DNA of 22,108 nucleotides from Gemmatales bacterium (GCA_038227745.1 JBBRPS010000052.1:1-22108); one strand, 5' to 3'. Numbered from the stretch's first letter, positions 168 to 3,545 are shown. The notes: generated from the letters alone by a model not told the origin. Numbers and translations are program-made.

Positions 168-3100
168 TCAAGGCTCTTCGTCCTTCGCCGCCGACTTCAA
201 CGGCGAGCGCGGCGCCGGCTCGCGGCCGGGCGGCACGAACACCGGGAAGGGCATGCGGAGCTGGTCCGGGTCGAACAGCAGCAGGTGCCGCCGCCCCGGC
301 ACATTCTCCGCGTCGATCAGCACCATGTCGCGACCCATCAGCGCCCGCCCCAGCGACTCCCAGTACAGACGGAAATCGAGCAGCGCCGCCTGCGCCGCCG
401 CCGCCCGGTCGCGCTTCGCGCGATAGGTCGCGTACGCCGCTTCCGCGTCGCCGTTCTCCAGCAGGCCGTCCACCGCCTCCAGGAACAGCGGCCACTCCTG
501 CTCGAAGGCGAGCTGCTTCCGCGCCGCGCTCCACGCCAGGAAGCGCTTCTGCTCCGCCTCCGCCTGCGTGACCACCTCCGTCCGCAGCGACCGCGCCTGC
601 GACACGATCCTGGCCGCCTCCGCCTCGGCGTCGCGCTCCTTCTGCAGCTTCTCGGCGCGGGCCTCGTTGATTACCCGGTCGTGGTCCTCCATCGCCCGCG
701 TCACGGCGTGGTACGACGGCACCACCTCCGCCGGTGGGTGCAGGTCGTGTAGGGCGAAGCCGTCCAGCTCGATGCCCAGGCCGTACTGCGCACAGCGCGC
801 GCGCAGCCGGTCGAGCACCACGCCCTGGAACTGCTCGCGCCGCGCGGTCAGCAGTTCCAGGAACGGCCGGCCGGCGATCAGGCCGCGCAGCACCGACTCC
901 GTCCCGGCGCGGACCACCTCGTCGGCGTCGCGCACCTTGAACAGCCAGGCATACGAGTCCTTAATGCGGTAGCGCACGGTCGCCTGGATCTCGACGAGGT
1001 TGCCGTCGCCCGTGATCATCACCGCCTCGTCCTCGACGCGCTTGATGCCGTCGCCGCCGTGGACGCTGGCCCAGGCCATCGCCCCCGGCGCCGCGGCACT
1101 GCCGGGGGCCGTACGGAAACCCACCTCGACGGTCCGGATGCGGTCGGGCTGCACGCGCACCACGCTCTCGACGGGCCACGGCCAGCGGTAGTGTAGCCCC
1201 GGCTCCAGGTCTTCCACCGGCCGACCGAAGCGCAGCACCACGCCGCGCTCGTCCGGCTCGATCTGCGTCAGGCCGCTCAGCATCCAGCCGCCCGTGAGCA
1301 GGAACAGGACGACGAGGACGGCGGCGCGCCAGTGGTGGCCGAGCCAGTGGAAGAACTCGTCGAAGTTGAGGTAGTGCTCCATCCAGGAATCGACGTCGCG
1401 GAAGACGCGCCGCGCTCGCCCCAGCGTCGGGCTGGCCGCCGAGCGCTCGAACCACAGCAGGCGCATCGAGTTGACCAGGACGGCGAGCGAGCCGAGCTGA
1501 TGGTAGATGACGGCGGCGATTGGCCCCTGCTTGTACCACCACTCCGACGTCGCCAGCAGCGGCCACAGCCACGCCGTTACCACGATGCCGACCGCGTTCA
1601 CGCCGAACGCGAAGAAGAGGATGTTCTGGCGGATGATGCGGACCGTCTCGCGCGACAGCTTGACCAGCAGCGGCAGCGGCCGCAGCGGGGCGCCCATGAG
1701 GACGATGTCGCCCGCCTCGGCGGCCACGTCGGTGCCGCCGCCGACCGCCAGGCCGACGTCGGCACGGGCCAGGGCCGGCGCGTCGTTGATGCCGTCGCCG
1801 ATCATCGCCACGCGCCGGCGGGCCATCGGCGCGGCGGGCTGCCCCTCGCCGCCGCGCGGCGCCTCGACCATCATCCGCGCGACGACCTGCGCCTTCTGCT
1901 CGGGCAGCAGCTCGGCGTGGACGTCGCCGATCCCCAGGGTTTCCGCAACGGTGCGGGCCGCGGCGGCGCGGTCGCCGGTCAGCAGGACGATGTCCGTGAT
2001 GCCCAGCGCGCGCAGCTCACTCAGCACGCCCGCCGCTTCCGGCCGGACCGCGTCGCGGGCGCCGACGGCCCCGAGGACGACGCCGTCGCGCGCCACCAGC
2101 AGAGCGGTTTCCCCGCCCGCGTCCAGCCGTTCCAGCAACTCGACGGCCTGCGCCGGGACCGTGATCCCCTGCTCCTCCAGCAGGCGGCGCGTGCCGACGA
2201 CGAGGCGCTGGGGGGGGCCGTCGGCGGGAGCGGGGGGCGGAGTGGCTGCGGTGCCCGGCTCGGCGATGTTCTCGCTGTCCGGTCCCGGCGCCCGGCCGCG
2301 CACCACGGCGGTGACCCCCGCGCCGGGGTGGGCCAGGAAATCCTCGACGACGTCCAGCGGCAGTTTCCGGGCGGCGGCCTCGTGCAGGATCAGCCGCGCG
2401 ACAGGGTGCTCGCTGCGCTGTTCGGCCGTCGCCGCCGCGCGCAGCAACTCGTCGGCACGGACGCCGTCCAGCGGCAGCACGTCGCCGAGCTGCAGCCGTC
2501 CCTCGGTCAGCGTGCCGGTCTTGTCGAAGGCGATGGCCGTCACGCCGGCGAGGCGCTCCAGCGCCGAGCCGCCCTTGATGAGCACGCCCGTGCCAGCGAG
2601 CCGCCCCAGCGCGGCGATGACCGCGGCGGGCGTGGCCAGGATCAGCGCACACGGACAGGCGACGACGAGGACCGACAGGGCCGGGTAAGCGCTGATCTCG
2701 ACGGCGTCGCGGAACGACAGGCGCGGCGAGTCCGCCGCGCGCAGCAGGCCGGCGCCGTGGTAGAGCATGCCGCCGAGGAAGGTGACCGTCGCGATGCCGA
2801 GGACGGCGGGCAGGAAGTAGCGGGCCAGGCGGTCCGCGGTGCGCTCCACGCTCGCCTTGTCCTTGAGGGCACGGGCGGTCAATTCGATCACACGGCCCGC
2901 GACGGTGTGCTCGGCGACGCGCTCGGCGTCGATCGTCAGGGCCCCGAACTGGTTCAGCGCGCCGGCCAGCACCTCGTCGCCCGGGCCTGTATCGACCGGC
3001 AGGCTCTCGCCGGTCAGGGCGCTGGTGTCCACGGCGGAGCGGCCCTCGACGACACGGCCGTCCACCGGGATGCGCGCCCCCGGCTTGACGACGACGCGGT

Positions 3101-3545
3101 CGCCGACTTTCAGCTCGCTCGTCAGGACGCGAACCTCCTGGCCGTCGCGCAGCAGGTAGCAGCGGCGCGGGAACACCTCGACGAGCTTGCGGATGGCGCG
3201 CTGCGTGCGCGCGAAGGTGACACCCTCCAGGCACTCGCCGACCATGCCGATGAAGACGACCTCGGCGGCGACGAGCGGCTCGTCGAGGAGAATGGCGGCG
3301 ATGCAGGCGACGGCGAGGGCCACGTCGGCGCCGACCTTGCCCTCGAACAGGCCCTCAAGGGAGCCGTAGAGGATGCGGGCGCCGCCGAGGACGGCGGCGA
3401 TCATGGCAATGCGGTAGCCGAAAACCTTCTGCGGCAGGAACAAGTCGAGGGCGATGAGCACGCCGAGCAGCGCCGTCAGGACGTAGAGCGAGACGTTGCG
3501 CTCCGAGGCGAAGGTCGAGTCGGTGTGCGAGATTTCACGGTGCAT
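168..3545 (-). CDS. P1B-type P-type ATPase fused in frame to a C-terminal HflK/HflC-like SPFH (band-7) domain, 1125 aa. There is no N-terminal HMA/CxxC metal-binding domain.
   Basis: Motifs read in the translation: TGES actuator motif (SALTGESLP), TM6 CPC (VVACPCALILATPAA), phosphorylation site DKTGTLT, SEHP, hinge MIGDGINDAPALA. After the last ATPase TM helices (…AVLVNSMRLLWF) comes a ~35-aa linker, one more TM (RAAVLVVLFLLTGGWMLSG), then an SPFH domain (…RFGRPVEDLEPGLHYRWPWP…ITGDGNLVEIQATVRYRIKD…) and a coiled-coil tail (EARAEKLQKERDAEAEAARIV…). The ORF is continuous in the six-frame track. Confidence 0.75.
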   Translation of the reverse strand: MHREISHTDSTFASERNVSLYVLTALLGVLIALDLFLPQKVFGYRIAMIAAVLGGARILYGSLEGLFEGKVGADVALAVACIAAILLDEPLVAAEVVFIGMVGECLEGVTFARTQRAIRKLVEVFPRRCYLLRDGQEVRVLTSELKVGDRVVVKPGARIPVDGRVVEGRSAVDTSALTGESLPVDTGPGDEVLAGALNQFGALTIDAERVAEHTVAGRVIELTARALKDKASVERTADRLARYFLPAVLGIATVTFLGGMLYHGAGLLRAADSPRLSFRDAVEISAYPALSVLVVACPCALILATPAAVIAALGRLAGTGVLIKGGSALERLAGVTAIAFDKTGTLTEGRLQLGDVLPLDGVRADELLRAAATAEQRSEHPVARLILHEAAARKLPLDVVEDFLAHPGAGVTAVVRGRAPGPDSENIAEPGTAATPPPAPADGPPQRLVVGTRRLLEEQGITVPAQAVELLERLDAGGETALLVARDGVVLGAVGARDAVRPEAAGVLSELRALGITDIVLLTGDRAAAARTVAETLGIGDVHAELLPEQKAQVVARMMVEAPRGGEGQPAAPMARRRVAMIGDGINDAPALARADVGLAVGGGTDVAAEAGDIVLMGAPLRPLPLLVKLSRETVRIIRQNILFFAFGVNAVGIVVTAWLWPLLATSEWWYKQGPIAAVIYHQLGSLAVLVNSMRLLWFERSAASPTLGRARRVFRDVDSWMEHYLNFDEFFHWLGHHWRAAVLVVLFLLTGGWMLSGLTQIEPDERGVVLRFGRPVEDLEPGLHYRWPWPVESVVRVQPDRIRTVEVGFRTAPGSAAAPGAMAWASVHGGDGIKRVEDEAVMITGDGNLVEIQATVRYRIKDSYAWLFKVRDADEVVRAGTESVLRGLIAGRPFLELLTARREQFQGVVLDRLRARCAQYGLGIELDGFALHDLHPPAEVVPSYHAVTRAMEDHDRVINEARAEKLQKERDAEAEAARIVSQARSLRTEVVTQAEAEQKRFLAWSAARKQLAFEQEWPLFLEAVDGLLENGDAEAAYATYRAKRDRAAAAQAALLDFRLYWESLGRALMGRDMVLIDAENVPGRRHLLLFDPDQLRMPFPVFVPPGREPAPRSPLKSAAKDEEP

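Follow-up and report, generated by a model that had tools for sequence, protein, structure and literature searches.

A P1B-type ATPase fused to an HflK-type SPFH domain in a Gemmatales bacterium and its association with hflC and hflK in relatives

In a 22,108-nt stretch of DNA from a Gemmatales bacterium (GCA_038227745.1, JBBRPS010000052.1:1-22108; the whole stretch is here called the window), the gene at 168-3545 on the minus strand encodes one protein of 1125 amino acids (aa). This protein joins a P1B-type ATPase, by way of a linker and an additional transmembrane (TM) helix, to an SPFH domain of the HflK type. The pump-HflK fusion is a real single polypeptide and not an artefact. In many relatives the gene is accompanied by hflC and a second hflK gene. 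We favour, with slightly better than even confidence, the interpretation that the pump is tethered within one polypeptide to a periplasmic SPFH ring of HflK and HflC, perhaps together with FtsH, and that it handles a divalent metal.

A single reading frame encodes a metal pump and an SPFH domain

The initial annotation, made from the DNA alone, had described 168-3545 as one uninterrupted frame of 1125 aa carrying a set of pump motifs. Both points were borne out. The frame starts with ATG and is stop-free, and TGES, CPC, DKTGT, SEHP (aa 378-381) and GDGxNDxP were all found at verified coordinates. Pfam analysis of the translation returned the three domains that had been expected, each far above its gathering score: E1-E2_ATPase (aa 125-317, E=1.6e-50), Hydrolase (aa 336-596, E=4.9e-26) and Band_7 (aa 761-966, E=2.6e-26). 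The last of these lies in the C-terminal part, where the annotation had made its proposal depend on such a match. The NCBIfam model for heavy-metal P-type ATPases (TIGR01525) matched aa 74-696 with 533 bits (cutoff 346), and the HflK equivalog model (TIGR01933) matched aa 761-1031 of the window protein with 160.5 bits, marginally above its cutoff of 159.4. A hydropathy scan revealed eight pump TM helices before aa 700 and a ninth at aa 741-759 (peak 2.11). The AlphaFold2 (AF2) model of the full-length protein was built from an alignment of 33 family members and reached a mean pLDDT (predicted local distance difference test) of 75.5 and a pTM (predicted template modelling score) of 0.55. The modelled chain runs from the pump domains through a helical linker and TM9 into a beta-rich SPFH domain, with long helices at 941-1069. 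The features of the gene are as follows.

168-3545, minus: whole fusion gene, consisting of P1B-type ATPase, linker, TM9 and HflK-type SPFH domain (Pfam, NCBIfam; full-length in the best 120 of 120 homologues)
1446-3545, minus: P1B-type ATPase core, aa 1-700, with eight TM helices (MA, MB, M1-M6) and A, P and N domains, no N-terminal HMA domain (TIGR01525, TM scan, AF2 and Foldseek)
3003-3014, minus: TGES, aa 178-181, A-domain dephosphorylation motif (T, G and E kept in 60-63 of 63 divergent fused representatives)
2649-2657, minus: CPC, aa 297-299, M4 ion-binding motif (62 of 63 fused representatives)
2511-2525, minus: DKTGT, aa 341-345, catalytic phosphorylation site (62-63 of 63 fused representatives)
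1776-1799, minus: GDGINDAP, aa 583-590, P-domain hinge motif (motif scan and family alignment)
1488-1505, minus: YHQLGS, aa 681-686, M6 motif (H in 62, Q/E in 62 and S in 58 of 63 fused representatives)
1332-1451, minus: cytoplasmic linker, aa 699-738, predicted helical (family-wide variable in sequence, 21-53 aa long)
1269-1331, minus: TM9, aa 739-759, counterpart of the N-terminal membrane anchor of HflK (hydropathy; AF2 helix 739-756)
648-1265, minus: SPFH/Band_7 domain of the HflK type, aa 761-966 (Pfam, TIGR01933, phmmer, Foldseek)
1041-1112, minus: insertion of the fused paralog, about aa 812-835, with W825 and H829 (family alignment; low pLDDT)
339-725, minus: coiled-coil helices, aa 941-1069, matching the wall-forming helices CC1/CC2 of HflK/C cages (AF2 helices 941-1010, 1014-1029 and 1034-1069; alignment to HflK 140-335)
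243-338, minus: conserved C-terminal segment, aa 1070-1101, with R1072, D1078 and R1086 invariant in the close family (alignment)

By analogy with HflK/C, aa 1070-1101 are a candidate cap-forming tail. The His- and Trp-rich sequence HWLGHHW in the linker was considered as a general metal site and dropped, since it occurs in the Gemmataceae only and is not family-wide. At the N-terminus, MHREISH (3525-3545, aa 1-7) has M1, H2, R3, I5 and H7 invariant in close relatives, and an MH start is common in distant fused members (MHYIPES, MHREY, MHMQHK). This MH peptide may take the place of the absent HMA domain as a regulatory or metal-binding element.

The fusion is conserved across species

The initial annotation had considered two adjacent genes in the same frame whose separating stop codon had been lost through sequencing error or mutation. 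The closest homologues, that is the best 120 database proteins (58-75% identity, 1076-1153 aa, coverage 98-100%), all contain E1-E2_ATPase, Hydrolase and Band_7 at full length (120/120). The exact sequence of the window protein had no match in the protein collection. For the genome scan, one genome per GTDB species was searched with a query spanning the junction (pump M5/M6, linker, TM9 and SPFH domain). This matched 194 species genomes, 80 of which were kept and form the basis of all locus counts. The kept loci come from metagenome-assembled genomes (MAGs) of Gemmataceae, Gemmatales or Planctomycetota, a few of them with implausible bin labels. Several carrier MAGs are titled Alcaligenaceae or Candidatus Kuenenia; their sequences group with Gemmataceae-like ones.

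One stop-free frame runs across the pump-SPFH junction in 74 of the 80 loci, and a consistent separating stop in orthologous loci, which the annotation had named as the sign of two genes, was not seen. The six exceptions comprise one contig end and five frameshifts, mostly in long-read MAGs in which neighbouring genes are broken as well. Only in L065 does the break fall inside the linker; it is a slip of 1 nt, past which homologous linker sequence continues and no new start codon appears. The internal methionine that had been offered as the possible start of a separate HflK-like gene was correctly located at window 1382-1380 (M722), but it is not conserved in the fused family and thus not a conserved start.

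More divergent members were found in a HMMER search of 1.84 billion representatives of 50%-identity clusters. Of the best 150 matches, which were assessed, 62 are full-length fused clusters and 38 are two-half fragments, at 33-64% identity. Cluster P0207 (33% identity) includes proteins from Elusimicrobiota MAGs, listed at NCBI under the name "FtsH protease activity modulator HflK", and one family member labelled "partial" comes from Armatimonadota. In the 63 divergent fused sequences, D341 is retained in 62, C297 and C299 in 62, D584 in 63 and N650 in 62. Such near-invariance of catalytic and ion-site residues argues that the pump half is under selection as a working enzyme, and we predict it to be a catalytically intact P1B-type metal-export ATPase. 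In a neighbour-joining (NJ) tree of pump cores, which carries no support values, the fused proteins form approximately one clade, with the Elusimicrobiota sequence as a long branch outside it.

Two sequences depart from the common pattern. In P0206, a representative of 1008 aa, both halves are present but catalytic residues have been lost, CPC and DKTGT among them, which may reflect either decay to a pseudo-pump or a poor assembly. P0228 (L090 380-2278) is an unfused pump nested in the fused clade as sister to the fused P0168. It has a true in-frame stop directly after M6, and the downstream DNA is without linker-like sequence. Secondary loss of the SPFH tail appears to happen occasionally.

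That a sequencing error or a recent stop loss has merely joined an adjacent pump gene and hflK gene is of practically negligible probability. This explanation has on its side nothing but the a-priori rarity of the architecture and the few loci with frame breaks; it is opposed by the frame common to 74 of 80 species genomes, by the 62 divergent full-length clusters, by the lack of conservation of M722 and by the continuing linker in L065. The lost-stop proposal is therefore refuted, and the covalent union of a P1B-ATPase with an HflK-like protein, as initially proposed, is supported by homologues, loci and divergent clusters.

The SPFH half is of the HflK type

In a phmmer comparison with E. 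coli HflK chains, the fused domain gave E=2e-22 over HflK residues 140-335, with a weaker TM-proximal segment in addition. Foldseek with the full-length model returned pump matches only, and the SPFH half was therefore modelled separately. The top matches of this junction-to-C-terminus AF2 model (pLDDT 66, pTM 0.36) are the HflK chains of 9cz2, 7vhq, 9paw and 7wi3 (probability 1.00, E 3e-13 to 4e-10), followed at lower rank by stomatin, HflC, prohibitin and erlin. With TIGR01933 (cutoff 159.4), the fused domains of P0279, P0168 and P0192 scored 196, 201 and 122 bits, respectively. The even number of pump TM helices, followed by TM9, would place the SPFH domain in the periplasm, TM9 being predicted to carry the chain across the membrane. 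The periplasmic position suggested by the initial annotation is supported by this topology and by the HflK-type best structural matches.

A mark of the fused paralog is a stretch inserted at about aa 812-835, between the SPFH subdomains, in which W825 is found in 60 and H829 in 58 of 63 sequences. Neither E. coli HflK nor the free HflK partners described below have this insertion. FtsH is reported to bind the HflK/C cage through HflK only, and R185 is one of three HflK residues whose mutation weakens FtsH binding (PMC13220708). The counterpart of R185 in the window is R879; this position is Arg in 45 and Lys in 5 of 63 fused sequences, whereas each of the six free HflK partners examined has N, A, Q or G there. 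These residues give a hint that the pump-bearing paralog may be the one facing FtsH. The other two FtsH-contact residues of E. coli HflK, R141 and E142, align with K835 and R836 under HMMER; with MAFFT they could not be mapped reliably, the first residues of the fragment being misaligned.

Ion site and metal of the pump half

Foldseek matched the pump of the full-length AF2 model to the structures of CopA, ZntA and sCoaT, each with probability 1.00. The fused pumps lack an HMA domain, and their ion site pairs the M4 motif CPC with H-Q/E-x-x-S, which is conserved in M6. The histidine, His682 in the window, lies 10 residues before the conserved M6 Asn. From our own reading of the motifs, CopA has Met, ZntA Asp and P1B-4 pumps His at this position. 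A histidine acts as internal counter-ion in P1B-4 pumps, whose substrate specificities are broad and include Fe2+ export (PMC10654040).

Compared with P1B-1 pumps, the window protein has FGVN and not YN in M5, and YHQLGS and not MxxSS in M6. Compared with P1B-4 pumps, CPC takes the place of SPC in M4 in 62 of 63 fused sequences, and the counterpart of His682, present in 62 of 63, stands in H-Q/E-x-x-S and not in HEGxT, the equivalence of position being a matter of motif reading. Unfused CopA-type pumps from the same search carry AMALSS in M6. With the copper-pump model TIGR01511 the window protein scored 373 bits, below the cutoff of 397, and with the Cd/Zn-family model it scored above the cutoff. 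In the NJ tree, the fused pumps are placed beside the SPC/HEGST (P1B-4) and SCPC/HEGS groups and away from the CopA-type pumps with AMALSS. Judged by their sequences, the fused pumps are an unstudied P1B clade with CPC, an M6 His and no HMA domain.

The closest unfused relative examined, P0242 (620 aa), has the same M4 and M6 motifs. Its locus (L089 1-6863) reads stomatin-nfeD-cbiM-cbiN-cbiQ-cbiO-pump, with cbiM and cbiN not called as genes in the record; CbiM has E=1e-54 yet falls below the curated cutoff, and the match to CbiN is weak. At the Elusimicrobia locus (L085 2116-8982), the order is hflC-hflK-cbiQ-cbiO-fusion, the fusion gene following directly after cbiQ-cbiO. The cbiQ-cbiO synteny is thus common to two very distant lineages. 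Because of CPC with the M6 His, the NJ placement and the cbi synteny, a divalent metal is favoured over Cu+. By analogy, the pump probably moves a divalent transition metal of the Co2+, Zn2+, Cd2+ or Fe2+ type; for Co or Ni as substrate there is a weak pointer.

hflC and hflK genes accompany the fusion gene in relatives

In relatives, two further Band_7 genes lie 3' of the fusion gene, in varying surroundings. The first partner scores above the HflC equivalog cutoff and the second is HflK-like. hflC lies on the same strand in 68 of the 80 loci, and in 62 of those the second hflK does as well. The order fusion-hflC-hflK recurs in L087 (38% identity), in L088 (43%, a form of 1301 aa) and in L092 (46%), where stop and start codons overlap by 4 nt; in L085, hflC-hflK lies upstream of the fusion gene. 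The partners in L085, L087 and L088 reach 194-214 bits for HflC (cutoff 134) and 198-226 bits for HflK (cutoff 159). Since an hflC-hflK pair stands alongside the fusion, the system is predicted to be a full pair plus a pump that bears an additional HflK-type domain. An ftsH gene was not found in any locus examined.

A small gene follows the triad in L087 (11026-11496, 156 aa) and L088 (12240-12731, 163 aa); the two are homologous and without a Pfam match. This gene was dropped as a fourth cassette component, as the open reading frame (ORF) at the same position in the Gemmataceae locus L001 is unrelated.

Downstream of the fusion gene in the window itself, positions 1-167 contain no hflC start or homology and no ORF start. 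They hold a terminator-like hairpin only:

21-37, minus: terminator-like GC hairpin with T-run, 130 nt after the stop codon (1.4 expected in shuffles)

The hairpin is weak evidence when taken alone, because one such site is within chance expectation. The downstream stub showed no homology to the closest genome relative, L005, whose own 1.2 kb of downstream sequence is without hflC.

Proposed mechanism and alternatives

Canonical HflK forms a 24-subunit cage with HflC and binds FtsH. In the mechanism that we favour, the fused HflK-type domain would fill HflK positions in a hetero-oligomeric ring or cage with the co-encoded HflC and free HflK, and pumps would thereby be tethered around the ring by TM9 and the linker of 21-53 residues. 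Free HflK may dilute the pump-bearing subunits or set the number of pump-carrying positions. The ring would keep the pump confined, or clustered, in a membrane patch bounded by SPFH proteins. Since the fused paralog keeps the R185-equivalent Arg and the free one does not, the pump may moreover come within reach of FtsH for control of its stability. An extension of this scheme, which we consider improbable, makes the ring a pump-fed periplasmic metal-handling chamber, with the W825/H829 insertion receiving the ion released into or at the SPFH vault. If this were true, metal would be sequestered there or passed to a client, and SPFH cages would have a new function unrelated to proteolysis.

Several observations weigh against the tethered-pump interpretation. 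Co-assembly, the ring and FtsH binding are deduced from gene order and homology, and the AF2 models are moderate (pTM 0.55 and 0.36) and uninformative on oligomers. The FtsH argument concerns one residue, R185, and the counterparts of R141/E142 are K835/R836. Partners are missing from 6 of the 80 loci, although each of these has 1.5 kb or more of sequence downstream, and two-strand tblastn (4-6 kb of flank in most) found none there either; L091 is likewise without adjacent hflC or hflK. The window ends 167 nt past the fusion stop, which leaves the partner genes, if linked, outside it, and the terminator-like hairpin lies 3' of the gene. The free HflK of Gemmataceae scores below the HflK cutoff and the window protein barely above it. 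As to the metal, the assignment draws on the resemblance of motifs, on an NJ tree without bootstrap values and on synteny at two loci. The Cu and Cd/Zn cutoffs are both exceeded by other family members, so that the hidden Markov models do not settle the metal.

The SPFH tail could instead be a built-in stomatin-like oligomerisation or regulatory module that gates or clusters the pump in homo- or hetero-rings without FtsH. Stomatin domes enclose aquaporin-1 (AQP1) and UT-B without a protease (PMC12407830; PDB 9zd2). The unfused sister pump P0242 lies near stomatin-nfeD and not near hflKC, and no ftsH gene was found in the loci examined. In E. coli, too, ftsH is not linked to hflKC, and its absence from a locus therefore says little. 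With a domain and partners of the HflK/HflC and not the stomatin type, and with the R185-equivalent Arg kept in the fused paralog, we regard an FtsH-free module as possible yet doubtful.

Two further explanations question whether the protein acts as a tethered exporter at all. The chain might be a precursor whose linker is cleaved after insertion, giving free pump and free HflK-type subunit at 1:1, the fusion being a device for co-translation or co-insertion. The linker is indeed the least conserved part of the protein (21-53 aa), and the rare unfused P0228 falls inside the fused clade; yet there is no conserved cleavage motif, the Gemmataceae linker has conserved residues and predicted helices, and operon linkage alone would give co-expression, whereas the fusion has been kept across phyla. 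We rate such processing as quite unlikely. No more credence is due to the pump as a sensor, that is a metal- or ATP-dependent conformational switch of the HflK/C cage that tunes FtsH proteolysis and is not a bulk exporter. The open and closed states of HflK/C are functionally important (PMC13220708), the M5-M6 segments that move between E1 and E2 directly precede the linker, and P0206 is still fused without CPC and DKTGT. However, transport and catalytic residues are all kept in 62 of 63 clusters, which fits a working pump.

Other features of the window

A sigma-70 scan found no promoter on the strand of the fusion gene; TTGACT-17-TAGCCT, seen by eye as a promoter, fails the criteria of that scan and was discarded. 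Upstream of the gene lies a repeat:

3667-3710, no strand: perfect 20-nt inverted repeat (GGGCTTGCCGTTTCGCGCGC and its complement) with a 4-nt loop, about 120 nt 5' of the fusion ATG; unique in the window

It is located in a divergent intergenic region and is a possible operator or RNA hairpin. Opposite most of the fusion gene, an ORF of 1084 aa (1332-4586, plus strand) is a shadow ORF typical of DNA of about 72% GC. Its last 215 or so codons (3939-4586, no Pfam match) may be a real divergent gene.

An efflux operon at 4785-8940 encodes a MarR-family regulator (4785-5291), a MacA-like membrane-fusion protein (5315-6706), an ABC ATPase (6756-7532) and a MacB-type permease (7558-8940); it is not conserved beside the fusion gene in relatives. 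Further along are two housekeeping genes, one for an FtsK/SpoIIIE DNA translocase with all four FtsK domains (14446-17205, minus strand, 919 aa) and one for a FabD-like acyltransferase (19126-20265, plus strand). GC content drops to 0.62-0.64 at 18001-19500, compared with about 0.70 elsewhere, and this dip overlaps an ORF of 507 aa without Pfam match (17467-18990, minus strand). Because the flanks of the window (MarR-MacAB, FtsK, FabD, ABC) differ from those of related loci, they were treated as unrelated to the fusion gene.

Novelty and significance

In the literature that was covered, which includes a 2009 survey of prokaryotic SPFH proteins, a 2023 review of P-type ATPases and current structural work on HflK/C, no description of a covalent pump-SPFH coupling or of the three-gene cassette was found; subscription-only surveys of P-type ATPases lay outside this search. 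The statement of the initial annotation that the architecture is undescribed fits these searches, yet databases contain hundreds of unremarked examples, under names such as 'Cu+-exporting ATPase' (JGI) and 'FtsH protease activity modulator HflK' or 'cation-translocating P-type ATPase family protein' (NCBI). Taken singly, the P1B ATPase, HflK and HflC are unremarkable representatives of known families; what appears to be new is the coupling and the cassette.

How SPFH cages (HflK/C, stomatin, prohibitin, flotillin) act on membrane-protein clients is an open question, and the clients are hard to identify. In the fusion, one defined client, a P-type metal pump, has become covalently linked to an HflK-type subunit in the course of evolution, and in hundreds of species of at least two phyla this link has persisted alongside HflC and free HflK. 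This offers a natural system with a fixed attachment point, in which the position of the client relative to the ring and the number of clients that fit could be addressed. It could also be used to ask whether activity, lipid environment or FtsH-dependent turnover is under the control of the cage.

Comparison with known systems

The E. coli HflK/HflC-FtsH system (7WI3, 7VHP, 9CZ2, 9PAW) is the best match in sequence and fold. In both, a single N-in TM helix serves as anchor ahead of the SPFH domain, which is periplasmic in E. coli HflK and predicted to be so in the fusion; long coiled coils and a conserved C-terminal tail follow, and the HflC partner is co-encoded in relatives of the fusion. 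In contrast, E. coli HflK has a short cytoplasmic N-terminal tail where the fusion has a P-type pump of 700 aa, and it is without the W...H insertion. E. coli hflKC comprises two SPFH genes, whereas the fusion cassette has three (fused HflK-type, HflC and free HflK) with C before K, and association of the fusion with FtsH is putative.

Among metal pumps, the P1B-4 group (sCoaT 7QBZ, CzcP/PfeT/CtpD type) resembles the fused pumps in the lack of an HMA domain, in an M6 His at what we take to be the counter-ion position and in being their neighbour in the NJ tree. It differs in having SPC and HEGxT, where the fusion pumps have CPC and H-Q/E-x-x-S, and in lacking the C-terminal TM9 and SPFH domain. 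CopA-type P1B-1 Cu+ pumps share the overall fold and CPC, and bit scores to CopA structures are similar; unlike them, the fusion has neither MxxSS in M6, nor the M5 Tyr of YN, nor HMA, and stays below the TIGR01511 cutoff (373 versus 397). A precedent for handling of a P-type pump by the FtsH system is MgtA, which is listed as a known FtsH substrate (PMC13220708); MgtA is a P3-type Mg2+ importer without a physical link to HflK/C.

Genetic coupling of an SPFH protein to a specific membrane partner is also known from the stomatin-NfeD and QmcA-YbbJ operons (PDB 8Z5G). There the partner is an NfeD protein, with neither transporter nor fusion; the unfused sister pump P0242 adjoins such a stomatin-nfeD pair. 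The nearest functional precedent is the stomatin dome around aquaporin-1 or UT-B (PMC12407830; PDB 9ZD2), in which an SPFH oligomer is physically tied to a membrane transport protein. That dome is non-covalent, homo-oligomeric and faces the cytoplasm, and its clients are channels, whereas in the fusion the link is covalent, the client is a P-type pump and the SPFH domain would lie in the periplasm.

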